Part shown: positions 5,257-55,587 of the stretch, in pieces
How positions within the stretch are numbered: position 1 is the first letter of the stretch
Layout: each line of letters starts with the position of its first letter
NCBI GenBank assembly: GCA_900539595.1
Contig: UQCQ01000001.1
Location: 172,291-236,290 of the forward strand
Length of the DNA stretch: 64,000 nucleotides
DNA from: an uncultured Mollicutes bacterium
GTDB taxonomy: Bacteria; Bacillota_I; Bacilli_A; RFN20; CAG-826
Reading direction: 5' to 3'
Made by a program: the position numbers and the translations under genes
Notes under the pieces: model-generated
Told to the model about the DNA's origin: nothing
Databases searched by the model: none
The model's input: the letters and a program-made list of their open reading frames with translations, nothing else

Positions 5257-8200
5257 ACACATGCTCCAAAATTACCGACGCGATTTTAGCTCCAGCGCCG
5301 CCTTTGCCATAACGATCATCTGGTTGAATAGTCCCCGACTTGATTAATTCATTCAGAAGCTTTGCCATGCCTTTTCCTGAAGGAGGGAACATGCACTTCC
5401 CCGCTCGTTCCGTTTTTTCGCGGACAATTAATGCGGGAATGCCAAGAAATAACGCTTCTTCTTCCACGCCGCCAGAATCCGTTATGACGGCAATAGAAGA
5501 CGATAGTTTCCTTTGAAACTCTTGTGGCTCCAACGGATTGGTAAGCGTTAGATTCGGAATGTTCTTCAGTTTTTGCGCTGCGGCAACAATCACGGGATTG
5601 GGGTGAACGGGGAACAAAAACTGCACGCGTGGATTCAATTGGCAGCATTCCCTTATTTCGGAAAAAATATTTGTCAAAAAAGGGAGGTTTTCCTTCCGAT
5701 GAATGGTAATAAGAACACCCTGCCTCGATTCGGAAACAACATTTTGTCTCAAATAATCAACGAATGTATTACCGGTAACAATCACGCCGCGTGCGCCTTC
5801 TCTTATCAGGTTTTCTTCTTCCTTGCTTGATGGGGCGAAATTCAAAGCGGCTTCTTTGCTGATTCTTTTTCGAATAATTTCTTCAGGAAAAGGATTCGAT
5901 TCATCGAAACTACGCAAACCGGCTTCCACATAATAGAGAGGAACGCCAAGCAGCAGTGACAGCTTGGCACCAGACAATGCGGATGAAGTATCACCCTGAA
6001 CACAGATATAAGAAGGGGCGAACGGCAAGACTCGCATAGTATCTTCGGCCCATTTTTCGGATATCTTGTCAAAATCTCCTTGTCGCAGCTTAACGAAACA
6101 ATGCGTATCAATCCCACCTTTCATTAGTATCTTCGTTGGAAGACCATCATGTTGATGCGTATCAAGAACATAAAAGGGTGCCTCTCTTTGTTGCAATGAT
6201 TCTAGAATCGGAAGCATCTTGATCGCTTCGGGGCGGGTTCCAAGAACAAATAAGCCTGGATGCCGATCCATGGTAAAAAGCAATTTCTCTTGCTCTTTTT
6301 CATAGGAATACAAAGATGCAATCGCATAGGCCCGCTCCGTAAGGGCATTTGTCCTTTGAACATCACGGTTCAACATTTCTATCAAGTTGGCGGCCTCTTC
6401 AACATTGGAATAAAACGCCATAGAGTCTCCAAACGTGTATTGAATGCGATTTAGGCGAGAGCTAACGACGCACGGAAGCCTCGACAAAGCGGCCTCATAA
6501 ACGCACCTCCCAAAAGTTTCCTGCAAAGAAGTGCAAAGATAAAAATCCGACTGATCGAGAGCCGTCTTCAACTGCAGCTGACCAACAGAGCCCTTAAAGA
6601 AAATGAAATCACCAGCGTCCTCTATCATGGATTCGTAAATTGTCTTCTCGTCGATTGTCCCATAGATGCTAAGGGTCGCATCATATCCACGTTTTCGTAG
6701 CAAAGAGACAATTTCTTTGGATTCGGGAAGATTTTTTTGAAGTTTAGTGCTGGAAATCATGACGATTCGCACTCTACGTCCTCCAGTCTCCCTTTCTTTT
6801 GGTTTTGAATCAAAGATTTGAGATATGCCTCTTGATATTACTTTGATGCGATTAGGATTCGCACCATAGTGTTTGGTTATCACTTCTTTGTCTTCTTCGT
6901 TTGGAACAACAATCGCCATGACATTTTGGTAAACCCTTCTTTCGGCGGCAAAATATTCTTTAGGCGGAAACTCGCCAGACCTTAAATAATCGCAACCGTT
7001 AAACATTGGGAATACTATGGCTTTCGCAAGATTTGCGTCATTCAGTCCAAAAGCTTTGGATGTATGAACAACAACAATTTCATCATAATTTTCCAAAAGA
7101 CCATTAATTCTCTCTTCGTAATGAGCGATCGAGTCAATCCTGCGGGAAAATTTCCCTTCTCGACAAGGATTTGGTAGAAATACGTGATGACGAAAAGCAT
7201 TGATATCTCCGTAATCACTTCTTGGCGAACGCAGGCAATAAAAGTCTAAATCATAGTGTCCTTTGGCGGCTTTCACTATTGACGAAACCATGCTGGATCC
7301 CCCGCCATCAGGGACCCCATAGAACTTGGAAGTAATGAGAGCAACTCGTTGACGCTCCCAAAAACGTAAATATTTTTGGAATATCGCCTCGAAGTCATAA
7401 CCATCAACCTCTTCATCTCGAGGAAGTTCTTCAAGAGGTGCCGCCAACACGGCTGCCGCGATTTCAGACGGCGAATCACCACAAATAACCCCCCTCTTGC
7501 CATTTATAATTTCACTTAATGCTCCAGAATCGGTTGAAACAATATAGGTTCTCGAAGCTATAGCCTCCAAAATCGTTCTTCCCATTCCCTCGCAATGAAT
7601 ATAACGGCCTCCAGGAACCTCATATTCAAGGTTCCCAGAGCATTGCAAATAAATATCTGCGCCTACAATATAAGGAAGTACTTTCTCGTGTTCTTTTTTT
7701 CCAAGAAAATAGATGCGCTCATTTTTTTCGTATTTTAGTTTTAGTTCCGAAAAGTCTGGGCCATCGCCGATAATGGTAAGGTCGTATGGTTTTGGAAGCA
7801 GATTAAAAGCAGTTAAAAGAAGCCCCATGCGCTTATAAGGCTCAAATCTAGCGCTGCACACAAGGTGAATTCTTTGCTCTTTAAAAAGCTTCTTCTTTAT
7901 TGCCTTTTTATCCAGCGATTCAATGGAAGAAAGTGGTACGCCTCCCCTACAGAGGCGGAGCATCGACCCTCGAATCCCCAATTCTTCCAATCGTTTTTCC
8001 GTAAAACAACTATTGGTAATGAGAATATCGACATTGCGATTAAGCGTTTCGATCCAATACCTTTGCCTATTTTCAAGTGGTTTGGTTAAATCCAATAACG
8101 GGGCCGAAGGGATTTCGTTACCACCCGTCCGATAGAGAACCCTGGCCTTTGGAAAAAACGATTTGATTTCATCCATTTCCTCAATCCAATGGCCAGAGTT

Positions 8201-9127
8201 AAAGAACACGCGAATATCGCGATGCCCAATTACGGTTTTCAAATCGGCGTACTTAGTCGAGCACCCCATGTTTGACTCGACAATTGTATTTTCGCCGTTC
8301 CTATGTGAAACAACATAAACGTCGCCTTTGTCCCAAAGAAACTTTTTAAGATACTTTGCATGGGTTTCCATGCCACCAATATCGTCAAGACTTGATTCGA
8401 TGTAGAGAAGATAAACGGGTGGCAATAGATTTAATATACTTAACGCGTTACTAACCCCATTTTCGAATGAGGCGGCAGTCACGAACTTCGCGGCGTAGCC
8501 CACTTCCGCCGGGCATCCGGCCATCGCAACGGAATTTGGAAACGATTGAATCATCTCAAAATCATTCGGGCCGTCACCAAAGACCGCAACTTCTTCTTTG
8601 GACCATCCTTCTTTATTGCAAATTAATTCAATCGCGGAAGATTTGGAAACACCTTTTCTAAGGCAAACATCCACCCCGGATTTTTGCCAGCGAACCACAT
8701 GGTATTGCTTTGGAGAAGCGCCTGTTTCATAGACCAGAGCATAAATGTTTCCTTCCGGTCGGGAGCAATCCGTCGTCACAAACCCTTTCTTTAAAAGTGA
8801 CTTTTGAATTTCTTCATTCTTTGCATGAATACCAGAATCGGCATAGGCGGCGAGCCAATTATCATTTAAGACAGCCGAAATTGGCCTTTCCGATATTTTT
8901 GTTTCTCGCTTGTATATAACAGCACCATCAAACAAAACATAGTAGTCGAATTCAAAATCCCCCAGAGCGGCTTTTGCCATACCCATATTTCGAATGCTGC
9001 ACACTCCCAGTTTAATGCCACGTTTTTGCAAGGATCTAAGATCGTTTTGCAAGGATGGCGGCATCCCCAATCCTTTGCTCTTGCAAACCAGCGTATTACC
9101 AATATCAAAGAAACAGGCTTTAATCAT
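5243..9127 (-). CDS. 1294-aa multidomain glycan-synthesis protein. Domain order: HAD-like hydrolase, GT4 glycosyltransferase, a second GT4-like domain, then a non-hydrolysing UDP-GlcNAc 2-epimerase (WecB-like) C-terminal domain.
   Basis: N-terminus MIKACFFDIGNTLV (HAD-like motif I). GGMETH and EGMGRTILEAIA are GT4 signatures. The C-terminal ~370 aa carry GTRPEAIKM, VEAGLRS, TGNT, HRKEN, DSGGVEEEA and TER motifs colinear with WecB. It is a single uninterrupted ORF. Confidence 0.65.
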   Translation of the reverse strand: MIKACFFDIGNTLVCKSKGLGMPPSLQNDLRSLQKRGIKLGVCSIRNMGMAKAALGDFEFDYYVLFDGAVIYKRETKISERPISAVLNDNWLAAYADSGIHAKNEEIQKSLLKKGFVTTDCSRPEGNIYALVYETGASPKQYHVVRWQKSGVDVCLRKGVSKSSAIELICNKEGWSKEEVAVFGDGPNDFEMIQSFPNSVAMAGCPAEVGYAAKFVTAASFENGVSNALSILNLLPPVYLLYIESSLDDIGGMETHAKYLKKFLWDKGDVYVVSHRNGENTIVESNMGCSTKYADLKTVIGHRDIRVFFNSGHWIEEMDEIKSFFPKARVLYRTGGNEIPSAPLLDLTKPLENRQRYWIETLNRNVDILITNSCFTEKRLEELGIRGSMLRLCRGGVPLSSIESLDKKAIKKKLFKEQRIHLVCSARFEPYKRMGLLLTAFNLLPKPYDLTIIGDGPDFSELKLKYEKNERIYFLGKKEHEKVLPYIVGADIYLQCSGNLEYEVPGGRYIHCEGMGRTILEAIASRTYIVSTDSGALSEIINGKRGVICGDSPSEIAAAVLAAPLEELPRDEEVDGYDFEAIFQKYLRFWERQRVALITSKFYGVPDGGGSSMVSSIVKAAKGHYDLDFYCLRSPRSDYGDINAFRHHVFLPNPCREGKFSRRIDSIAHYEERINGLLENYDEIVVVHTSKAFGLNDANLAKAIVFPMFNGCDYLRSGEFPPKEYFAAERRVYQNVMAIVVPNEEDKEVITKHYGANPNRIKVISRGISQIFDSKPKERETGGRRVRIVMISSTKLQKNLPESKEIVSLLRKRGYDATLSIYGTIDEKTIYESMIEDAGDFIFFKGSVGQLQLKTALDQSDFYLCTSLQETFGRCVYEAALSRLPCVVSSRLNRIQYTFGDSMAFYSNVEEAANLIEMLNRDVQRTNALTERAYAIASLYSYEKEQEKLLFTMDRHPGLFVLGTRPEAIKMLPILESLQQREAPFYVLDTHQHDGLPTKILMKGGIDTHCFVKLRQGDFDKISEKWAEDTMRVLPFAPSYICVQGDTSSALSGAKLSLLLGVPLYYVEAGLRSFDESNPFPEEIIRKRISKEAALNFAPSSKEEENLIREGARGVIVTGNTFVDYLRQNVVSESRQGVLITIHRKENLPFLTNIFSEIRECCQLNPRVQFLFPVHPNPVIVAAAQKLKNIPNLTLTNPLEPQEFQRKLSSSIAVITDSGGVEEEALFLGIPALIVREKTERAGKCMFPPSGKGMAKLLNELIKSGTIQPDDRYGKGGAGAKIASVILEHVYGKN

Positions 9128-19978: not shown

Positions 19979-20233
19979 TCATATCACAAGCTCAGACGCT
20001 AGATGTCTCCTGAACAGTTCAGAAGACACCTTTAGTCTGAGTTTGATGCGCTTCGTGTTATACCATTGAACATCCTCGTCTTCTCCTCGCATAAGCCTTT
20101 TTGGCTCATGCTTCGGATGTCCTTCTCTCCGCCGCCATTTGGTCCGCAAGGACTTGGTGGCACTCATGCGGACAGACATGGGAGTTTTTGACCTCGAGAT
20201 GTCCGCAGTTTCTCTTGTCCGCGCCACCATCAA
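19979..20233 (-). mobile_element. IS3-family (IS150-group) transposase C-terminal fragment; a scar with no intact transposase
   Basis: The ORF ends ...VQWYNTKRIKLRLKVSSELFRRHLASEL, resembling the conserved IS3 OrfB tail ..YYNNKRIKAKLKGLSPVQYRTQAL. The surrounding 19.94-20.55 kb is GC-richer and contains only broken ORFs. Confidence 0.45.
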
Positions 20234-20615: not shown

Positions 20616-20933
20616 CTATTTAAGGCGTGCGGACGCATCGGAATTATTGTTTTCACTTGCGGAACTTTGTTCGTTCGCGTTGTTTATGGCTGTGCAAATT
20701 TTCTCTATTAGTCCCTTGAATCTATCAAAAATGATTTTGTCATTTTCCGTTAAATGTTCTTTGCCGATTACATTGATTTCAACTTGCTCATTGATTGGTA
20801 CTGATTTAAAGATAAAATCATATAAATCTTTACCAGTAACCGAGTGATCCTTTGAAATGGAAAACAATTTGCTTTCTTCTTCCATGACTACTAATTCTTC
20901 ATCAATACGTTTAATCTGTAATTGTTTTTTCAT
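20616..20933 (-). CDS. Hypothetical 105-aa protein translationally coupled to the upstream PHP-ATPase gene
   Basis: Its start overlaps the stop of the 815-aa gene by 23 bp. It has the same very low GC content and no recognisable motifs. Confidence 0.5.
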   Translation of the reverse strand: MKKQLQIKRIDEELVVMEEESKLFSISKDHSVTGKDLYDFIFKSVPINEQVEINVIGKEHLTENDKIIFDRFKGLIEKICTAINNANEQSSASENNNSDASARLK

Positions 20934-23358
20934 ATCTTTTCCATCTCTTTCTTAATGAATCTACACCGCCATCTAGATTTTCACTTACTATTTTTAAAAT
21001 ATCTAGATTTTTATCCTGATATTCTAGCGCACCACTTTCTATTTGAAGAACGCCATCTTTTGTATCGTGAAAATAAATCACATTATCAGCATCGAGGTTA
21101 ACAACAAATTGGGGATTATGAGTGACTAAAATGATTTGTTTGTTTTTTGACATTTCTTTGAGGTCTTTTACAACGCTTGCTTTGATACTTGGCTGGGAAA
21201 TGTCATCCTCCGGTTGATCAATAATGTAAATGGTATTTTCTTTGCTATGTGCCAAGATATCTATATATTTAGCCGAATTAAAGCCGGCCGAATAAGTTGC
21301 TGTTACATCCTCTCCTTTTTTGATTATGACTTGTTTTGACTTGAGGGCATTTTCTATTTCGGTATCAATTTTAGCCTTCAATATATCAACTGGATCTTCG
21401 GAGGTGGTTTCATCTTTATCTTTTATGGATGATAAAAATTGATCTTTTGTTAAGCTTTTAAGGTCAAAAATTTTATTTAAGTCTGCTCCTTGTTTCATTA
21501 CATTAGCTAATAACTCTTCGCAAAACGAACTATCATAGAAAGCTTTATTGGAAGCAAAGCGACTTACAAGTTTGACATCGCTTAATTCTGTGTATTTATA
21601 GTCTGGTGTGTATTTTTCAAAAGAAAATCTGAAGACTGTAATTTTTGATTTTTTTCTTAGAATGGTCGAGATTTTGTCGGCAAAATGTTCAGAGGTTGTT
21701 TCGAAGGTTGTCCATTTCGCATCTTTGCTATTTTGAATAGCGCTTTGCTCGGAAATTAAAGAATCAATCGAATCATTAATACAATTTCTAATTTTGTTAT
21801 TCCATTCGATAAGATTCGTTTTACTTGAATATTTCTTTATAAGAGACTCGATATTATTACGCGTTTCAGTCAAAAGTTTTTTATCGACAGGGTCTGTGAT
21901 GAATTTAAGTGCTTCATCGATAGGGGTTAATGTTTTTTTGAGATTGGAGACAATTGATTCAAATGTGGAGCTTTCCTCAAAAGAAAAATCGGGTATTTTC
22001 TTTGGCTGTAAAGAAACTCCAGGAGAAGGTTCTATATTCAAATCGATTGTTTCATTGAAAAAATTAAGAATTTCTTGGTCTAAAGAAAATTTATCTGATA
22101 AAGCCCCATAAAATTTTTGAAAACTATTTTCGAGCTTCTCCTTCAAAACGGAAGAATCTGTTTCGGCTGGTTGGAATTTTTTGATGAGGGGATTGGAAAA
22201 GAATGTACCAGTTTCAAATGAATTTCGAATTTCACCTTGGAAGTCGAATTGAAAATTTAGGTTATTTTTAATTCTATCTATTTTTATGTCTTTGCTTTTT
22301 AGGTAATTGGCATATTCTTTCTTTTTCTTAGGTGTTGCTTTTCCGTCATTTGTCTTTCTATAGTTGGTTAACTCATGAAGAAACATCGATTTTCCTTTTG
22401 AGTTGTCACCTATTATCGCATTTATGCCTCGAGACAAAGGTATGCTGAATTTGTTTCCTTTAATACTATAGTCGAGCGATTCGAGAAAATTGTTCGAATT
22501 ATAAAAGAAAGTATTATTGCGAAGTATCCGAGTGTCATCCGTCAAAGCCATGGCCAGCCCTCTAAATGTTGGCAAGCATTTGAGGAAGGTCGGAGACATT
22601 TCTCCTTCCCTAGCGTTGCATTTGTCATGATGTGGGTAGGCCTCCCATTGATGACAATCAGAGCCGGTGATAAAACGAACCTTTTCGTAGGTTTCATTTG
22701 CTCGTTTCTTAAAGAGGTAGTGAAAGACATGGGTGTTTTCGGTCTTGAATTCATAAGCTTCGAAGTACCCAAAATTTAAAAGCTCATTAAATTTATCCGT
22801 TCCTAAAGCTTTTGCATCAGGTGAGGATTGCTTCTCACTCCCTGGCGAGTTTTTTTGGTGCGCAATTAAGCAAACGTTCATTCCGCTTTTTTGAAGTATG
22901 TCTCGGAAGGTTTTTTCAGCAAACATTTGCAAATTATGGGAATTCTTGGATCCAACAGCATCATAATTTTGGGATTTCAACAACCTTTCCAAGTCTTTTA
23001 CTTTTTCATCGTTTGAATCGTCAAATATTGCTATTACATGAACTTGTTTTGTTGTCACAATGCCTTCATCTTTTGTCTCTATTCCGACAGAGAACTCAAC
23101 GCCGGGAAGGATTTTCTTGAATTCTTTTCCTTCGTGTTCTTTCAAAGCATGGTAAAGGGAATAATCAAAGCAATCATGGTCAGTTATAGCAAACATATCT
23201 ATCGAATTATCTTTGAGCTTTGACAATAAGACTGGGATATTTTTAATCGTTCCGTCCTTTACAAGACTTCCGTCTTTTTTTGATGAAGCTGCTGAATGAA
23301 TATGAAAATCGACTTTTTGGCCTTGCAGAACTATCTTATCCATGATGGCGTCCCCCAT
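20911..23358 (-). CDS. PHP phosphoesterase domain fused to an ABC/SMC-type ATPase; Ppl-like defence protein candidate
   Basis: N-terminal PHP motifs (VDFHIHSAASS..., ITDHDC, further His/Asp ligands). Walker A NAIIGDNSKGKSMFL. C-terminal Walker B IYIIDQPEDDIS and H-loop LVTHNPQFV. 815 aa. Confidence 0.6.
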   Translation of the reverse strand: MGDAIMDKIVLQGQKVDFHIHSAASSKKDGSLVKDGTIKNIPVLLSKLKDNSIDMFAITDHDCFDYSLYHALKEHEGKEFKKILPGVEFSVGIETKDEGIVTTKQVHVIAIFDDSNDEKVKDLERLLKSQNYDAVGSKNSHNLQMFAEKTFRDILQKSGMNVCLIAHQKNSPGSEKQSSPDAKALGTDKFNELLNFGYFEAYEFKTENTHVFHYLFKKRANETYEKVRFITGSDCHQWEAYPHHDKCNAREGEMSPTFLKCLPTFRGLAMALTDDTRILRNNTFFYNSNNFLESLDYSIKGNKFSIPLSRGINAIIGDNSKGKSMFLHELTNYRKTNDGKATPKKKKEYANYLKSKDIKIDRIKNNLNFQFDFQGEIRNSFETGTFFSNPLIKKFQPAETDSSVLKEKLENSFQKFYGALSDKFSLDQEILNFFNETIDLNIEPSPGVSLQPKKIPDFSFEESSTFESIVSNLKKTLTPIDEALKFITDPVDKKLLTETRNNIESLIKKYSSKTNLIEWNNKIRNCINDSIDSLISEQSAIQNSKDAKWTTFETTSEHFADKISTILRKKSKITVFRFSFEKYTPDYKYTELSDVKLVSRFASNKAFYDSSFCEELLANVMKQGADLNKIFDLKSLTKDQFLSSIKDKDETTSEDPVDILKAKIDTEIENALKSKQVIIKKGEDVTATYSAGFNSAKYIDILAHSKENTIYIIDQPEDDISQPSIKASVVKDLKEMSKNKQIILVTHNPQFVVNLDADNVIYFHDTKDGVLQIESGALEYQDKNLDILKIVSENLDGGVDSLRKRWKRYEKTITD

Positions 23359-23519
23359 TGAATGATTTAAAAAAGTCTTTTGGTTATGTTTACTATAAGT
23401 AGATTATATTATGAATCGCATTTTATATGAAAAATCAAACGTCAGGAAGGGCGTCAGGTACTTGCTTGCCATTTGGAACAAATCGATTGTTTACGAAGTT
23501 TGAAATGGATAAAGCAAGA

Positions 23520-25286
23520 TTAACCTTTAAGTTTAAACTTTTCTTTGAGGTATTTGTTTAAGTTTTTATCGCAGCAGTAAATATACGTTCCCTTCATTCC
23601 TCTAGTCAGAAGAACGAGATAGGAATTGATGATGTCCTCAATCGTTTTGTTGACATCCGTCCCTACTTTTCCATGCTTATCATAATAGGAACTTGGAACG
23701 AATTCGATGATGCCTTTTTCTTTGTTGAAACGGATATCGTTTGAAAAGATGACGCCTGCATAATTCAGATCATATCCCTGGCAGGTGAAAACCGAGCCGA
23801 TAAGCGATACGGATTTCTTATCGGTTGCGAAGTTTTCGTTGATTCCATTCCAACTGTATTTCTTTCCGTCAATCATAAAATCATAGTCCTGGGTGGAATG
23901 GATTCCTTTCTTATCTCGCATGGATTTTGTGAATGGGAAACCATAGCCAGAGACGACTCGGCATAATCCGTCGTATTCCTTGTCTTTTTCCTTTATCGCA
24001 TCCATCATTTCGGCACAGTCGTCGAATATCTTGAAATCGTATCCTGTAGAACGAAAGTCGGGTGCGTTTTCCTTTGTTTCGTTTCGCAGCAACTTCGACC
24101 AATAGGAGATGTAGTCTTCTCCGGCAATGAGCCGGATCTGATGGTTAATCGGATACCAGTTGTTCTTTTTCTCATCCTTCATGGCAAGGAAATCCTTCTC
24201 TGGAACATCGGCACCGGAGGTGGACTGCTTTCGGTCATAGAAAAAGATTGCGACATGTTTCGCCTGCTTCTTGATCCAGTCGAGCTGAGTGGTGTTTACA
24301 TAGTCAGTGAAACCAAGACGATTATCGGCTTGCTTGAACGAGAGATGGCTTGTGGATTTTCCGTATGTGGCGAGGTGGTGAGCTTCGTCTACTAAGACGA
24401 TGTCGTAGCCTTCTTTTCTCTTCGTCAGGTCGACAGGGCTGACGACATCCACGTTTTTCAAGGATGGTATATTCTTGAACACGGACTTCACCGTGTTTCT
24501 GAACTCCGTCATCGGAGCAACGAAGGCGATGCTCGGCTTTGGAAGATTTGCTAGCTCCCGGTTCATCTGCATGTAGCTGATTGTGCTCTCAAGATCCTCG
24601 TAGCTATCGATGTCGGTATAGTCGATTTTCTGGGTGCAGACGTCTGCGATGTATTTGATGAGGGAGACGGCGAGAATCGATTTCCCGGTCCCCGCTCCTC
24701 CTTCTACGACGATGTTTCTCTTCTGCCCAGTTTTCAATGCGTCGGTTATATCAGCAAGGAGTTTTGCTTCAAGGTCATATTGCTCATCTGTAAGCTGTTT
24801 GAATGGTGAGTATTTGAAAATCTTGGAGTTCTCTACTTGTAGGATGGTTTTGTCTGCTAAGCCCTTGTCTCTCAATTGTTTCCAGATTCTCTTGAACAGC
24901 TCTTTGTATAAGGCACGCTGATAGTAGTTGTGGAACTTGGACTGCCCATTGTTCAGGTTTTGGAGCTCATACTTTCCATCTGCGTGCATGTGCTCGATGA
25001 GCATGTTCTCGATATCCAGAATGGCGGATTTGTTGAACATGTCGTTGAAGAGGACGTATTCGTTTATCATTGGCTTTCTTACGGAATTTTCCAGATGCTG
25101 AAGCATACGATTATATGCGCTTGAGGTTTCACCAACGTAGGCAACAGGCTTCTGCCCGTCTTTTCCATCTAAAATATAGACGACAGGCCAGTCGACTCCT
25201 TTGTTTGTGCTCAAAAGAGCCTTTGCGCCGTCTTCGTTGAAGCTGTATGTTCCGATGGTTGTCGTAGGAAGTGCTGTGTGTTCCAT
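23520..25286 (-). CDS. GIY-YIG nuclease domain fused to a DUF2075-type P-loop NTPase (Schlafen-like helicase-related ATPase)
   Basis: N-terminus VVYILDG....AYVGETSSAYNRMLQHLEN (GIY-YIG). Walker A VVEGGAGTGKSILAVSL and Walker B/DEAH IVLVDEAHHL. Confidence 0.65.
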   Translation of the reverse strand: MEHTALPTTTIGTYSFNEDGAKALLSTNKGVDWPVVYILDGKDGQKPVAYVGETSSAYNRMLQHLENSVRKPMINEYVLFNDMFNKSAILDIENMLIEHMHADGKYELQNLNNGQSKFHNYYQRALYKELFKRIWKQLRDKGLADKTILQVENSKIFKYSPFKQLTDEQYDLEAKLLADITDALKTGQKRNIVVEGGAGTGKSILAVSLIKYIADVCTQKIDYTDIDSYEDLESTISYMQMNRELANLPKPSIAFVAPMTEFRNTVKSVFKNIPSLKNVDVVSPVDLTKRKEGYDIVLVDEAHHLATYGKSTSHLSFKQADNRLGFTDYVNTTQLDWIKKQAKHVAIFFYDRKQSTSGADVPEKDFLAMKDEKKNNWYPINHQIRLIAGEDYISYWSKLLRNETKENAPDFRSTGYDFKIFDDCAEMMDAIKEKDKEYDGLCRVVSGYGFPFTKSMRDKKGIHSTQDYDFMIDGKKYSWNGINENFATDKKSVSLIGSVFTCQGYDLNYAGVIFSNDIRFNKEKGIIEFVPSSYYDKHGKVGTDVNKTIEDIINSYLVLLTRGMKGTYIYCCDKNLNKYLKEKFKLKG

Positions 25287-35028: not shown

Positions 35029-35219
35029 ACTATGCCGAGAAACTAAAAAAAATCCGTGAAACTTTACTATTATCTCAGGATGAATTGGCCAAAGAACTTA
35101 GTGTTACTTTTGCAACCGTGAATCGTTGGGAAAACGGACATCATGAGCCATCGCTAAAAGGAAAGAAGGCCATCAGAGATTACTGCAAGAAAATGCACAT
35201 TAAATTGGAAAAGGATTAA
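35025..35219 (+). CDS. XRE-family helix-turn-helix protein (64 aa)
   Basis: LSQDELAKELSVTFATVNRWENGHHEPS is a canonical Cro/CI-type HTH. Its start overlaps the res stop by 4 bp. Confidence 0.6.
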   Translation: MNYAEKLKKIRETLLLSQDELAKELSVTFATVNRWENGHHEPSLKGKKAIRDYCKKMHIKLEKD

Positions 35220-36159
35220 GATTGCTGATTTTATCGTTCTTCAAAAAATCTAAAACAAAATCTCTCCAATTTTGGTACCAATACCATTGTTTACCGACAA
35301 AGACACCATAGTGCTTTTCTGGATTTCTTGCATCATATTTTTTCCATAGCTTTGTGTGTTGATCTAGATTGAAAGTCGGAAAACCATTCTCTTTAACGAA
35401 ATTGACTATGGCACTAGGCAAAAACTTTGGCCTTTCTGTTTCTTTTATCAATAAATTTATTGCGTTGCTTTCCTCACTTCCTGACTTGACAAACCTTATT
35501 GCCTGGTCGGCTTGGTTTGGCTTGTTAACGTTTACAGGTACGAAACATACTCTATAAGAATATTTAGAATTTTCTAATATTTCGCTTGAGAGTGATTTTT
35601 CATAGGAAGAGATAATACTTGTGATGTTGTCAGCTGTCTTTTTGTTGATTAAGCCATTTTTTTGTTCTGGATTCAATGATGAAAATTGTATTGCCATACA
35701 CATAGTTTTATCTAATCCGAATTTGACGCCGAACAATTGCTTGATATAGTAATTGAAGTTGATGCTGCAAGCTTGGATTTTGGCACTTATTAATGAATCG
35801 TTTGTTTCGTAATAGCTATGCTCGATTTTGTTTCTAATTTGGATAAGAAGTTCTAAATTTTTCGCAGTAGGTTCATCTATTGGCGATTTGGTTTCTTTGA
35901 TGCTTCGCGATAAATCCCACTCTCTTTTCCGACCATCTATATATTCGTATTTGTATTTCCCATTGTCTTGAGACTTTCTATAGTAATAGCAAATATGATT
36001 TTTGTAGTAATACGCATGGAATAAATAAGTCCAGGCAATTTCTGAATTTACAATAAATAGTTCGCTTTTAAATGTGATTGTTGGATTGTTGTAGATTGCA
36101 ACTGCTGACATCATTGCTTGTCTAGCTTTTTCGACCAATGTTTTCCATTTGGCTTTCAT
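35200..36159 (-). CDS. HEPN-like protein (RNxxxH motif; Abi/DUF4145-like), 319 aa
   Basis: LELLIQIRNKIEHSYY carries an Rx4H HEPN-type motif. It is convergent with, and overlaps by 20 bp, the HTH gene at the 3' end of the R-M operon. AT-rich. Confidence 0.45.
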   Translation of the reverse strand: MKAKWKTLVEKARQAMMSAVAIYNNPTITFKSELFIVNSEIAWTYLFHAYYYKNHICYYYRKSQDNGKYKYEYIDGRKREWDLSRSIKETKSPIDEPTAKNLELLIQIRNKIEHSYYETNDSLISAKIQACSINFNYYIKQLFGVKFGLDKTMCMAIQFSSLNPEQKNGLINKKTADNITSIISSYEKSLSSEILENSKYSYRVCFVPVNVNKPNQADQAIRFVKSGSEESNAINLLIKETERPKFLPSAIVNFVKENGFPTFNLDQHTKLWKKYDARNPEKHYGVFVGKQWYWYQNWRDFVLDFLKNDKISNLNPFPI

Positions 36160-53876: not shown

Positions 53877-55469
53877 TTAGGCAAGGCTGATGGTGACGGT
53901 CGCATGATCGGCAGCCACTTCATCAAAGGTGATGCGATAGGGGAAATCCGACCCTTTATTGAAACAAGCATCCCCGTTTGAATTACGGAATGGGAAAGAA
54001 GAACGATACGTCTTCATGGAGAAACTATCCCCCGTGTGGAACAAATCGTTGTTGGTCCCATATTTCCCCGCGGCAAACGCCCCGTCGTTATCCGCTTCCA
54101 TCATGTGGATTAAGGAACAACGACTATCCACGCCGTCGTTTTTATTGCAGTTACTCGCACCTACCATATAGCCATAAACATAACGTCCATCGTAGGCTTT
54201 CATGCCGTCTTTGGGGTTTTCCATATAGGAATAGGTGGTATCGTGCGTCGACGTATTTTGTTTCAATTCCAATAAACGGGAATCGATGTGATAGAGCTTC
54301 GCCCCATAGGTGCTATAGCCAAGTAAACGTCCTGGATAACGTTCATGGGAATCCAAATAGTTGAGGTCGGTCGGAGTATAAAGCTCCAAAAGCATATATT
54401 CATCGTAGGCCGTACCGTTCCAAGAACTAGAAGGGATCAGCAAGCAGTCCCCGCTTGTCGCGGAAGGATTGATGGAATAAGTTCCCGGCCCTTGGACCAC
54501 ATGGGGAGAAGTCCAACCTAACACCATTTTGCTATAGGCGTCATGGTCCAAGATGTTTTCATCCATCATATCCCAGCCACCGGCAAGGTTGGCCTTGCTA
54601 TCGGTCTGATTGGGATAATAGTCATCGAGGCCATACATATGTCCCGTCTCATGAATCAAGGTATGCGCATCCACTTTCGGGGAGCTGACGGCTTGATACA
54701 AAAAGTCATAGGAAAGCCAAAAATAAAGGTTCGGGGTGGGATTCTTGGGGTTAGGATCACACCATCCTCCGGCTGCACTCGTCATCGACATCCAATAGGT
54801 ATAGGCCCAGTAATAATTGGTTTCGGAATCATATAAATTCGTGGGCGCATTCGTGCAGTTGGGCCCTGAATAAACAGCGACAATGCCATCGATATAGCCG
54901 TTTCCGTCCGAATCGAAAGCTTTGGTCGCCCCCTTCCCTTTAGCACTTACGTAATTATCGTAAGCATAATGAATCAAATTTCCGCCATTATCGGATTCCC
55001 CCGTCCGAGAGGAGACGTAACGAGAATAAGCGTTTCTCTGGGTTAATCCCGTTTTGTAGACGGGAGCCACCTCAAAGGAAAGATTGCTCTTGCCGTAACT
55101 GCTTTTGGAATAGAAAGAAGAAACGGATTCCCAATATCCCGTATCCTCTGCCTTGCCATTCAAGGCCACGTCCAAATCTTTTAAGGATCGGCTTGAGAAA
55201 GGCGAATCCGTGAATTCGATGGGCAAGACCAGCAATTTGACGTCGCCAGTAGGAGGAAGGGTGTCCGCCCCATAGGTTTCGTGGGCAGATTTCAAACTAA
55301 AAGGAAGGACGTCTGTGGTCCAATCTCCCTCGTGGTTCACCCCATTGCTGGCATTGGGGTTTCCACCGGGAAAACCACCAAATAGAATGTCATAAATGGA
55401 GCAGCTCGTTAGAGCCAGCGGCAAGGCTCCAACGAAAGTGAATAAAAATAATTTCTTAAGGTTTTTCAT
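53877..55469 (-). CDS. Secreted lipoprotein zinc metallopeptidase (HExxH)
   Basis: Signal peptide with lipobox MKNLKKLFLFTFVGALPLALTSC. Zinc motif HTLIHETGHMYGLDDYY. The start is reassigned to 55469; the ORF's first ATG is at 55550. Confidence 0.6.
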   Translation of the reverse strand: MKNLKKLFLFTFVGALPLALTSCSIYDILFGGFPGGNPNASNGVNHEGDWTTDVLPFSLKSAHETYGADTLPPTGDVKLLVLPIEFTDSPFSSRSLKDLDVALNGKAEDTGYWESVSSFYSKSSYGKSNLSFEVAPVYKTGLTQRNAYSRYVSSRTGESDNGGNLIHYAYDNYVSAKGKGATKAFDSDGNGYIDGIVAVYSGPNCTNAPTNLYDSETNYYWAYTYWMSMTSAAGGWCDPNPKNPTPNLYFWLSYDFLYQAVSSPKVDAHTLIHETGHMYGLDDYYPNQTDSKANLAGGWDMMDENILDHDAYSKMVLGWTSPHVVQGPGTYSINPSATSGDCLLIPSSSWNGTAYDEYMLLELYTPTDLNYLDSHERYPGRLLGYSTYGAKLYHIDSRLLELKQNTSTHDTTYSYMENPKDGMKAYDGRYVYGYMVGASNCNKNDGVDSRCSLIHMMEADNDGAFAAGKYGTNNDLFHTGDSFSMKTYRSSFPFRNSNGDACFNKGSDFPYRITFDEVAADHATVTISLA

Positions 55470-55587
55470 CGTTCTTACTATAGAGGAAATTAAAGGGAGG
55501 TCAATGCTTCTGCAAACGCTTGTCCTTTTCGGTTCTTTGGATTTTAACATTGACTAACCATTGTCAAACAAGGGATAACATTGGGAC

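Follow-up and report, generated by a model that had tools for sequence, protein, structure and literature searches.

In a 64,000-nt stretch of DNA from an uncultured Mollicutes bacterium (GenBank assembly GCA_900539595.1, contig UQCQ01000001.1, positions 172,291 to 236,290; referred to below as the window), we analyzed a pair of overlapping minus-strand open reading frames (ORFs) that an initial annotation, made from the sequence alone, had described as a Ppl-like fusion of a PHP phosphoesterase with an ABC ATPase and a coupled partner of 105 amino acids (aa). Both ORFs were present as described, the larger encoding an 815-aa protein, and positions 20911-20933 are common to the two, which corresponds to a 23-nt overlap (Table 1). 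The true start of the large gene is probably its second ATG (position 23343), giving an 810-aa product, because a GGGGGA run lies 8 nt upstream of that codon and the homologs start at MDKIV; one member of the 90%-identity cluster of the large protein is 810 aa long. Within the window, the pair sits between a Wadjet operon and a gene for a GIY-YIG/SLFN helicase, beyond which lies a SNF2-DUF4391-methylase-Res cluster.

All of the PHP, Walker A, Walker B, and H-loop motifs ascribed to the 815-aa protein were found in it: DFHIHSAASS (residues 17-26), ITDHDC (58-63), Walker A GDNSKGKS (317-324), Walker B IYIIDQPEDD (709-718), and LVTHNP (744-749). In an alignment of 17 sequences with 36-69% identity, the PHP ligands H19, H21, D60-H61-D62, E88, H107, H167, D234, and H236 were invariant, as were the ABC residues G317..K323-S324, Q374, S690/G692/N694, D714-Q-P-E-D718, and H747. 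Pfam returned nothing at E < 0.1 for this protein, so its domain identity was taken from NCBIfam, PADLOC, the alignment invariants, and the predicted fold. The AlphaFold2 model (mean predicted local distance difference test score, pLDDT, of 77.5, with residues 195-251 poorly modelled) comprises an N-terminal alpha/beta barrel-like domain, a split ABC head, a helical insertion of ~170 residues (helices at 403-434, 464-486, 490-539, and 544-571, pLDDT ~90), and a C-terminal basic helix. When the model was compared with the PDB using Foldseek, the N-terminus matched the PHP domains of RNase AM (7ug9, 9etk) and Pol III alpha (4gx9, 4iqj), and the ABC head matched those of SMC, cohesin, Rad50, RecN, JetC, AriA, and retron ATPases, the top matches being SMC heads with a coiled coil. 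Sequence searches of the PDB, conducted both with the single sequence and with a profile, yielded only weak matches to AriA, Rad50, SMC, and PHP proteins, and a Ppl structure was not found among them. The predicted N-terminal PHP domain and RecF/SbcC-like ABC ATPase are thus upheld by the invariant residues, by the fold matches, and by the model matches to Ppl, TrlF, and Spaf_1101 given below. As judged from the alignment and the structural model, the large protein is an intact PHP trinuclear-metal site joined to a competent SMC/Rad50-type ABC ATPase head, and catalysis is predicted.

Among the named families, the top-scoring model was NCBIfam TrlF (NF045780; 171 bits, 5.3e-50, residues 15-365), which shares the PHP plus ABC architecture and the C-terminal motif of the window protein. 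Spaf_1101 (NF045781; 71 bits) was the sole named model to align end to end (residues 44-812 to model positions 97-835 of 836), and the best stretches of the two Ppl models were C-terminal, at residues 688-808 for NCBIfam NF042955 (69 bits, E = 2.2e-19) and at 683-808 for PADLOC PDLC02208 (66 bits, E = 4e-19, with no curated cut-off). The TrlF, Spaf_1101, and Ppl scores all fall below the respective NCBIfam family cut-offs of 350, 475, and 1000 bits, the last being an equivalog cut-off that the whole-protein score must reach for Ppl membership. The term Ppl-like therefore holds for the architecture but not for membership of the Ppl family, and the nearest named model, TrlF, is likewise matched below its threshold. 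On the basis of these scores we assign the large protein to a separate ~800-aa clade, which is a new clade of the known Ppl/TrlF/Spaf_1101 PHP-ABC ATPases. The PADLOC candidate PDC-M49 was considered and rejected: the PDC-M49A matches (E = 4e-12 and 5e-10, with no curated cut-off) were confined to the N-terminus (residues 14-132/173), and the 105-aa protein had no PADLOC hit at E < 0.1.

The resemblance to Escherichia coli Ppl extends to the order of an N-terminal PHP domain, a split ABC ATPase with an insertion, and a C-terminal (E/D)GG..(A/S)(F/L)..R...Y helix, and BLASTP alignment to annotated Ppl was collinear (window residues 15-346 at 23% identity and 712-808 at 30%). The middle third of the window protein, however, does not align, and Ppl is an 891-aa product of a single gene whose annotated locus (L088) has neither an overlapping downstream ORF nor a match to the partner profile. 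TrlF proteins are 846-943 aa long and three of their loci (L086, L087, and L090) lack a partner; they are common on enterobacterial, Pseudomonas, and Lactococcus plasmids, and a published function for TrlF was not found in the literature searched. Spaf_1101, which likewise occurs in Bacillota mobile elements, is an uncharacterised family, and its 856-aa Bacillus example (L089) has no overlapping partner. For the proteins of loci L086-L090, alignment with that of the window is limited to the PHP/Walker A end and the C-terminal ABC lobe (23-38% identity), and they have the C-terminal motif EGG..(A/S)F...Y in common with it. No overlapping downstream ORF was found at these loci, nor any ORF matching the partner profile (best E = 2.1), and PHP-ATPases of ~860-990 aa on viral contigs likewise lacked an overlapping partner ORF. 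From the absence of the partner at the Ppl, TrlF, and Spaf_1101 loci we conclude that it is a defining character of the ~800-aa clade and not of the superfamily.

Within that clade, a same-strand ORF at the 3' end of the large gene was present in 77 of the 78 analysable genome loci and in all six of the viral-contig members. So regular a pairing goes far beyond chance. The ORF starts just before the stop codon of the large gene (13-20 nt past the stop in three loci), and the overlap measured 11-35 nt in 70 of the 77 junctions, with the relative frame of the two genes never varying. Once the ORFs had been trimmed to the conserved start, the commonest overlaps were 17 nt (33 loci) and 23 nt (21 loci, the window among them), with 26 nt seen in 8 loci and 11 nt in 3. 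In the invariant KRWKRYEK motif at the C-terminus of the large protein, the partner ATG falls within the codons for R-Y-E/D-K (aga tAT Gaa aaa), and the R-R-W-K-R codons spell a Shine-Dalgarno-like aGGaGatGG ahead of it. This layout indicates translational coupling, the small gene being read from a start codon set within the C-terminal codons of the large gene. Programmed frameshifting to fuse the two ORFs was rejected, since the partner has its own Shine-Dalgarno sequence and ATG and was never fused to the large protein among 1.84 billion representative proteins. In a Collinsella/Coriobacteriaceae subclade (L074, L076, L078, and L079; junction near 8340-8410), the partner ATG was mutated to ATA with a TTG left 62 nt upstream, and in L077 and L080 the partner ORF was absent altogether; the partner of this lineage may be decaying or using a different start.

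Conservation of the small protein was also evident in its sequence. A hidden Markov model built only from the partners of other loci, with the window left out, matched the window ORF end to end (E = 5.4e-14, with the search space set to 1e6). Among 5.8 billion proteins, a profile search recovered 114 partner relatives, and an exhaustive search of the 1.84 billion representative proteins recovered 177 partner clusters, all of them unnamed and always with the partner domain at the N-terminus. A single-sequence database search with the 105-aa ORF returned only one 99%-identical copy; given the relatives found by the positional survey and the profiles, this outcome reflects the word index of the search rather than an absence of relatives. 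Because the synonymous sites were saturated, selection was assessed by comparing pN with pS (the proportions of nonsynonymous and synonymous differences) in place of dN/dS. Against the close relatives L001, L082, and L085, pN was 0.23-0.43 for the small ORF, compared with a saturated pS of 0.70-0.83, which indicates purifying selection. The small ORF evolves faster than the large gene (pN of 0.27 versus 0.18), and the mean pairwise distance was 0.76 for the partner versus 0.60 for the large protein. The pairwise distances of the two proteins were nonetheless correlated in a mirror-tree comparison (r = 0.898), a value reached in 0 of 2000 permutations, and the partner was kept down to 27% identity of the large protein (L096). 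The window proteins carry the whole of the clade signature, which consists of a large protein of ~780-815 aa with T(Y/F)(L/A)KCLP(T/S)F, GDNSxGKS, (I/V)DQPED(D/N), and a KRWKRYEK end, and of a partner of ~90-120 aa (or ~215-240 aa with an S24 domain) that starts inside the R-Y-E/D-K codons with an 11-35-nt overlap. The suggestion that the 105-aa ORF is an accessory gene unreported for Ppl, making a two-component variant, is therefore substantiated by its conserved position, sequence, and overlap across the ~800-aa clade, by purifying selection, and by its absence from the Ppl, TrlF, and Spaf_1101 loci. We are almost certain that the two genes form a real, conserved module.

The partner family comprises a conserved alpha/beta domain of ~95 aa with an isoelectric point (pI) mostly between 4.3 and 5.2, in which only I26 and Y38 are near-invariant. 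The window partner has a pI of 5.2, a predicted order of beta-beta-beta-alpha-beta-long-alpha, and a disordered tail. The partner had no match in Pfam, PADLOC, NCBIfam, or PHROG, and neither a catalytic signature nor a ligand-binding or DNA-binding signature was found in it. Its sole recurrent fusion is to a LexA-like Peptidase_S24 domain (E = 1e-18 to 4e-24), located C-terminal to the partner domain. These long forms were present in 12 of the 77 genome loci (11 in the clade analysis) and in roughly a dozen representative clusters, and the large proteins that accompany them form a single clade, with differences of up to 52% between its members. All of the long forms in the clade analysis keep the AAC-A/G-DG cleavage motif (cleavage between Ala and Gly), the GxSMEP serine, and the (M/I)CKR lysine, and the S24-fused subclade is an old one. 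The long-form partners resemble LexA, CI, and UmuD in that their S24 domain is complete and includes an Ala-Gly cleavage motif, a Ser nucleophile in GxSMEP, and a Lys base in CKR; they differ in that the N-terminal domain is the acidic partner domain instead of a helix-turn-helix (HTH) and in that the gene lies downstream of, and is coupled to, a nuclease gene. The 105-aa partner of the window departs further from LexA, CI, and UmuD, as Pfam detected no S24 catalytic domain in it. A different set of systems, comprising PARIS AriA-AriB, Septu PtuA-PtuB, Gabija GajA-GajB, the OLD nucleases, and SbcCD/Mre11-Rad50, similarly combines an SMC/Rad50-like ABC head bearing a helical insertion with a nuclease and a partner protein in complex, and AriA, PtuA-like retron ATPases, JetC, and Rad50 were among the sequence and fold matches of the large protein. 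In contrast to those systems, with their Toprim, HNH, or Mre11 nucleases, the window pair has as its predicted nuclease a PHP domain that is fused to the ATPase in cis, and the window partner is a protein of ~100 aa that appears non-enzymatic, and not an effector.

The large-protein family is conserved over its full length in more than 1,650 database proteins of ~780-815 aa. In the genomes of 185,579 species (one genome per species), 145 matches were confirmed by tblastn, of which 80 loci were kept; these were mostly from Clostridia, Bacilli, Mollicutes, and Coriobacteriia, and relatives were also present on several predicted viral or prophage contigs. No neighbouring family was conserved beside the pair at 70 other loci, the most frequent one occurring in 6 of 129 flanking proteins. 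The flanks there were dominated by type I, II, and IIG restriction-modification systems, BrxL, AbiD/Abi_2, GmrSD, SNF2 helicases, AAA_15/21 ATPases, transposases, integrases, and TnpV. Since the flanks contain varied defence genes and no conserved neighbour, we consider the pair to be a self-contained mobile module of defence islands. For example, a 68%-identical relative (L082) keeps the helicase side of the window arrangement and has no Wadjet downstream, the nearest called gene there having AAA_14/DUF4143 domains, and a 53%-identical relative is set among a reverse transcriptase, an HTH protein, a methylase, and a HEPN protein. The closest locus in the genome collection (L001, 76% identity for the pair) is on a 6.6-kb contig binned as Bacteroides uniformis, which could be a case of mis-binning or of transfer between phyla.

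The reading that we favour, with a probability of about 0.6 and by analogy with Ppl, is that the pair is a self-contained, horizontally mobile operon of two genes, one for a Ppl-like defence nuclease and the other for a small subunit that regulates it. A role in defence against phages or other mobile genetic elements seems likely. According to published accounts, E. coli Ppl is a validated anti-phage protein that acts as a 3'-5' exonuclease on single-stranded DNA (ssDNA), is inhibited by bound nucleoside triphosphates (NTPs), and is triggered by 3'-OH overhangs together with NTP depletion (PMC12904381; Xu et al., Mol Cell 2026, cited in PMC13434339). The mechanism of the window protein would probably be like that of Ppl in kind, namely that of an NTP-gated PHP exonuclease acting on DNA ends, and the large protein may accordingly serve as an ATP/NTP-gated exonuclease that attacks phage DNA ends or ssDNA. 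The partner would be made in fixed proportion to the nuclease, bind to it, and serve as its sensor or safety catch. Self-cleavage on RecA-ssDNA filaments or in response to another stress signal could, in the S24 clade, separate the partner domain from a dimerising S24 domain and so release or activate the nuclease; in the short forms, including that of the window, the disordered and often acidic tail may serve the same end through turnover by proteolysis or through displacement, whether by DNA or by a phage product. The simplest reading of the S24 fusion is a destroy-to-activate switch of the LexA or CI type, which favours an inhibitory, safety-catch role, so that we tentatively view the partner as a negative regulator, at a little less than even odds. 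A more specific version is doubtful as a whole: the partner would be a proteolytically controlled safety catch that binds the basic C-terminal helix or the ATPase head and holds the nuclease inactive. Its removal would license immunity, in the S24 clade through LexA-like self-cleavage on RecA-ssDNA filaments and in the short forms through displacement or through degradation directed by the tail.

Several observations weigh against this interpretation. The window partner, with a net charge of -4, is only mildly acidic, and it lacks an S24 domain. Simple co-inheritance would also lead one to expect the mirror-tree correlation. The S24 protein IrvR is reported to self-cleave independently of RecA (PMC7101444), which makes the trigger in the S24 clade uncertain. 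Finally, the apparent loss of the partner ATG or ORF at a few Collinsella loci indicates that the large protein may tolerate the absence of its partner.

Other explanations of the pair were weighed against the same evidence. The partner might instead be a positive factor, needed as a sensor, adaptor, or specificity subunit to activate the PHP-ABC nuclease or recruit it to a target; it could, for example, load the nuclease onto a phage protein or DNA structure that it recognises. Such a role would fit with the frequent encoding of obligate subunits by downstream, translationally coupled genes, with the retention of the partner in essentially every clade member, including those borne on prophages, and with the faster evolution of the partner than of the nuclease (distances of 0.76 and 0.60; pN of 0.27 and 0.18), the pattern predicted for a surface in contact with phage factors; separate partners are also a feature of related ABC-ATPase systems, with AriA-AriB, PtuA-PtuB, and retron complexes among the fold matches. 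We consider a positive role unlikely, however, because an S24 fusion with an intact cleavage site reads most simply as a switch activated by destruction of the partner, the relatives Ppl, TrlF, and Spaf_1101 occur or function as single genes that have no partner, and no ligand-binding or DNA-binding signature was found in the partner. The sporadic and mobile distribution of the pair, its low GC content, the flanking transposases, integrases, and TnpV, and the occurrence of relatives on plasmids (840 records, 632 of them conjugative) would also suit a toxin-antitoxin-like module for addiction or stabilisation of mobile elements, or a factor in competition between elements, in which the nuclease is the toxin and the small, acidic partner with its disordered tail is a labile antitoxin. 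This appears improbable given that the large gene comes first and the partner is coupled to it, an order that provides no antitoxin excess, that the flanking genes are mostly defence systems, and that Ppl, the closest characterised relative, is a validated anti-phage protein; many toxin-antitoxin modules also act in defence, and to that extent the two readings are compatible.

Two further proposals concern whether the pair belongs to defence at all and whether the second gene exists. The resemblance of the fold to Rad50, RecN, and SMC heads, and the tie of one clade to DNA-damage signalling through an S24/LexA-type domain, could indicate a housekeeping or accessory DNA-repair nuclease like SbcCD or Mre11-Rad50, with PHP replacing the Mre11 phosphoesterase and the partner of the S24 clade providing a link to the SOS response. 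A family that is rare and patchy (145 matches across the 185,579 species' genomes), atypical in GC content, and found in variable defence-island and prophage contexts with no conserved linkage to repair genes makes this very improbable. As for the 105-aa ORF being a chance, unexpressed open frame in AT-rich DNA, the near-identical single match from single-sequence searches and the lack of a Pfam, PADLOC, NCBIfam, or PHROG family could be cited in its favour, but the idea is refuted, leaving it a negligible probability, by the presence of the ORF in 77 of 78 genome loci and 6 of 6 viral loci, the profile match (E = 5.4e-14), the 177 clusters, purifying selection, the conserved Shine-Dalgarno sequence and ATG, co-divergence with the large protein, and the conserved domain fusion.

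The partner family, the overlap with its embedded start, and the S24-fused subclade are undescribed in Pfam, NCBIfam, PADLOC, PHROGs, and the literature that we searched. Literature searches on TrlF, Spaf_1101, PDC-M49, and S24-linked defence did not turn up the arrangement of a PHP-ABC protein with an overlapping partner, and the name PDC-M49 itself was absent from the literature searched; a newer catalogue may nevertheless have named the system. Only recently has Ppl been explained, as an exonuclease of one protein whose activity is gated by DNA ends and nucleotide levels, and in this clade the same PHP-ABC chassis is part of an apparently obligate two-gene unit. The S24 branch provides a testable hypothesis of how Ppl-type nucleases are kept safe and what switches them on. 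If the safety-catch proposal were true, no earlier defence nuclease of the Ppl superfamily would be known to sense DNA damage or ssDNA by way of a cleavable subunit dedicated to that end, instead of through NTP levels alone. The pair also adds a candidate system for gut Bacillota, Mollicutes, and Coriobacteriia, which are under-represented in defence-system catalogues, and the partner ATG embedded in the KRWKRYEK codons supplies a genomic signature for annotation. Given the modularity of defence systems the finding is not startling, but it is clean and strongly supported, and it offers a specific control hypothesis for a Ppl-type nuclease.

The composition and flanks of the pair in the window were also examined. 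Its GC content was 34.5% (34.6% for the large gene and 33.0% for the small one) versus 44.0% for the window, and only 0.7% of same-size sliding windows fell below that value, which bears out its description as AT-rich; 1-kb bins near the same low GC were found at 35-36 kb (34.6%) and 39-40 kb (35.2%). The promoter-like and terminator-like sites listed in Table 1 bracket the operon, but the number of such sites in the region did not exceed that in shuffled controls. The Wadjet operon (JetABCD) reported beside the pair was confirmed downstream of it by a match of JetA to PF18982 (6e-67) and by precomputed Pfam hits for JetB, JetC, and JetD on the identical public contig. Its GC content of 46-51% is distinctly above that of the adjoining pair, which suggests that the two were acquired separately in one island. 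The 676-nt spacer between them contains an 84-aa ORF (19979-20233) that matches the C-terminus of rve_2 (E = 0.004); an IS3 scar, as had been proposed for this interval, is thus plausible, but the match is weak, its 17.6 bits lying below the cut-off of 22. On the other side, the gene for the 588-aa helicase is directly upstream of the pair both in the window and in the 68%-identical relative L082. Its inclusion as a third component was rejected, as a related family was present in only 2 of 129 flanking proteins elsewhere and its own GC content is 44.5%; it is probably an independent single-gene defence candidate. The SNF2-DUF4391-methylase-Res cluster farther along looks like a type III-like restriction or defence system.

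Table 1. Coordinates of the two-gene module and its neighbours in the window.
Feature	Position	Strand	Basis
Large gene, PHP phosphoesterase and SMC/Rad50-like ABC ATPase, 815 aa as ORF	20911..23358	-	ORF list, models, alignment, fold
PHP domain, ~residues 14-290	22489..23319	-	Alignment invariants, TrlF model match, Foldseek
ABC ATPase N-lobe, residues 294-400: Walker A G317-DNSKGKS-324, Q-loop Q374	22159..22479	-	
Helical (coiled-coil-like) insertion between ABC head halves, residues 403-571	21646..22152	-	AlphaFold2 model, Foldseek
Middle alpha/beta region and ABC C-lobe, residues 588-795: signature-like S690-x-G-x-N, Walker B, H-loop H747	20974..21597	-	
C-terminal basic motif DGGVDSLRKRWKRYEK	20911..20973	-	Form EGG..AF..R...Y common to Ppl, TrlF, and Spaf_1101
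Partner gene, 105 aa	20616..20933	-	ORF list, profile, positional survey
Shine-Dalgarno-like gagatgga of partner	20941-20948	-	
Start codon of partner	20931-20933	-	
Promoter-like site TTCATA-17-TATAAT, 10/12 matches, ending 45 nt upstream of first ATG of large gene	23403..23431	-	Consensus match only
Terminator-like hairpin then T-rich tail, beginning 24 nt past partner stop codon	20574..20592	-	Consensus match only
Complete Wadjet operon: JetA 468 aa, JetB 214 aa, JetC 1069 aa, JetD 405 aa	13491-19939	-	
588-aa protein: weak N-terminal GIY-YIG match, strong SLFN-group-3/DUF2075 helicase domain	23520-25286	-	PF09848, 7.7e-61; also PADLOC PDC-S14 N-terminus, 8e-12
Four-gene cluster: SNF2-type helicase 1093 aa, DUF4391 235 aa, N6/N4 DNA methylase 633 aa, ResIII helicase and RE_endonuc 1060 aa	26015-35028	+	
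DUF3644 gene, after the four-gene cluster	35200-36159		

Three minor observations were made during the survey. A minus-strand protein of the window at 53877-55550 has a cluster mate at 90% identity or more that is named Candidatus Enteromonas sp. (Bacillota). A third architecture was seen at L131:1456-4520, L154:1381-4415, and ~25 other IMG/VR loci among L100-L169, where an ABC ATPase of ~620-680 aa, with no PHP motif detected at its N-terminus and the same C-terminal LLEGGxEAFxxRxxxY (PADLOC Ppl C-terminus, 8e-20), is directly followed by a ~375-aa protein with HEAT repeats and HATPase_c (GHKL) that had no PADLOC hit. Lastly, on the Lactococcus lactis plasmid pCV56A (L090), a plasmid-borne recA (7860-8372) lies ~3.5 kb downstream of the TrlF-family gene, a proximity that may be coincidental but is of note given the proposed link between S24 and RecA.

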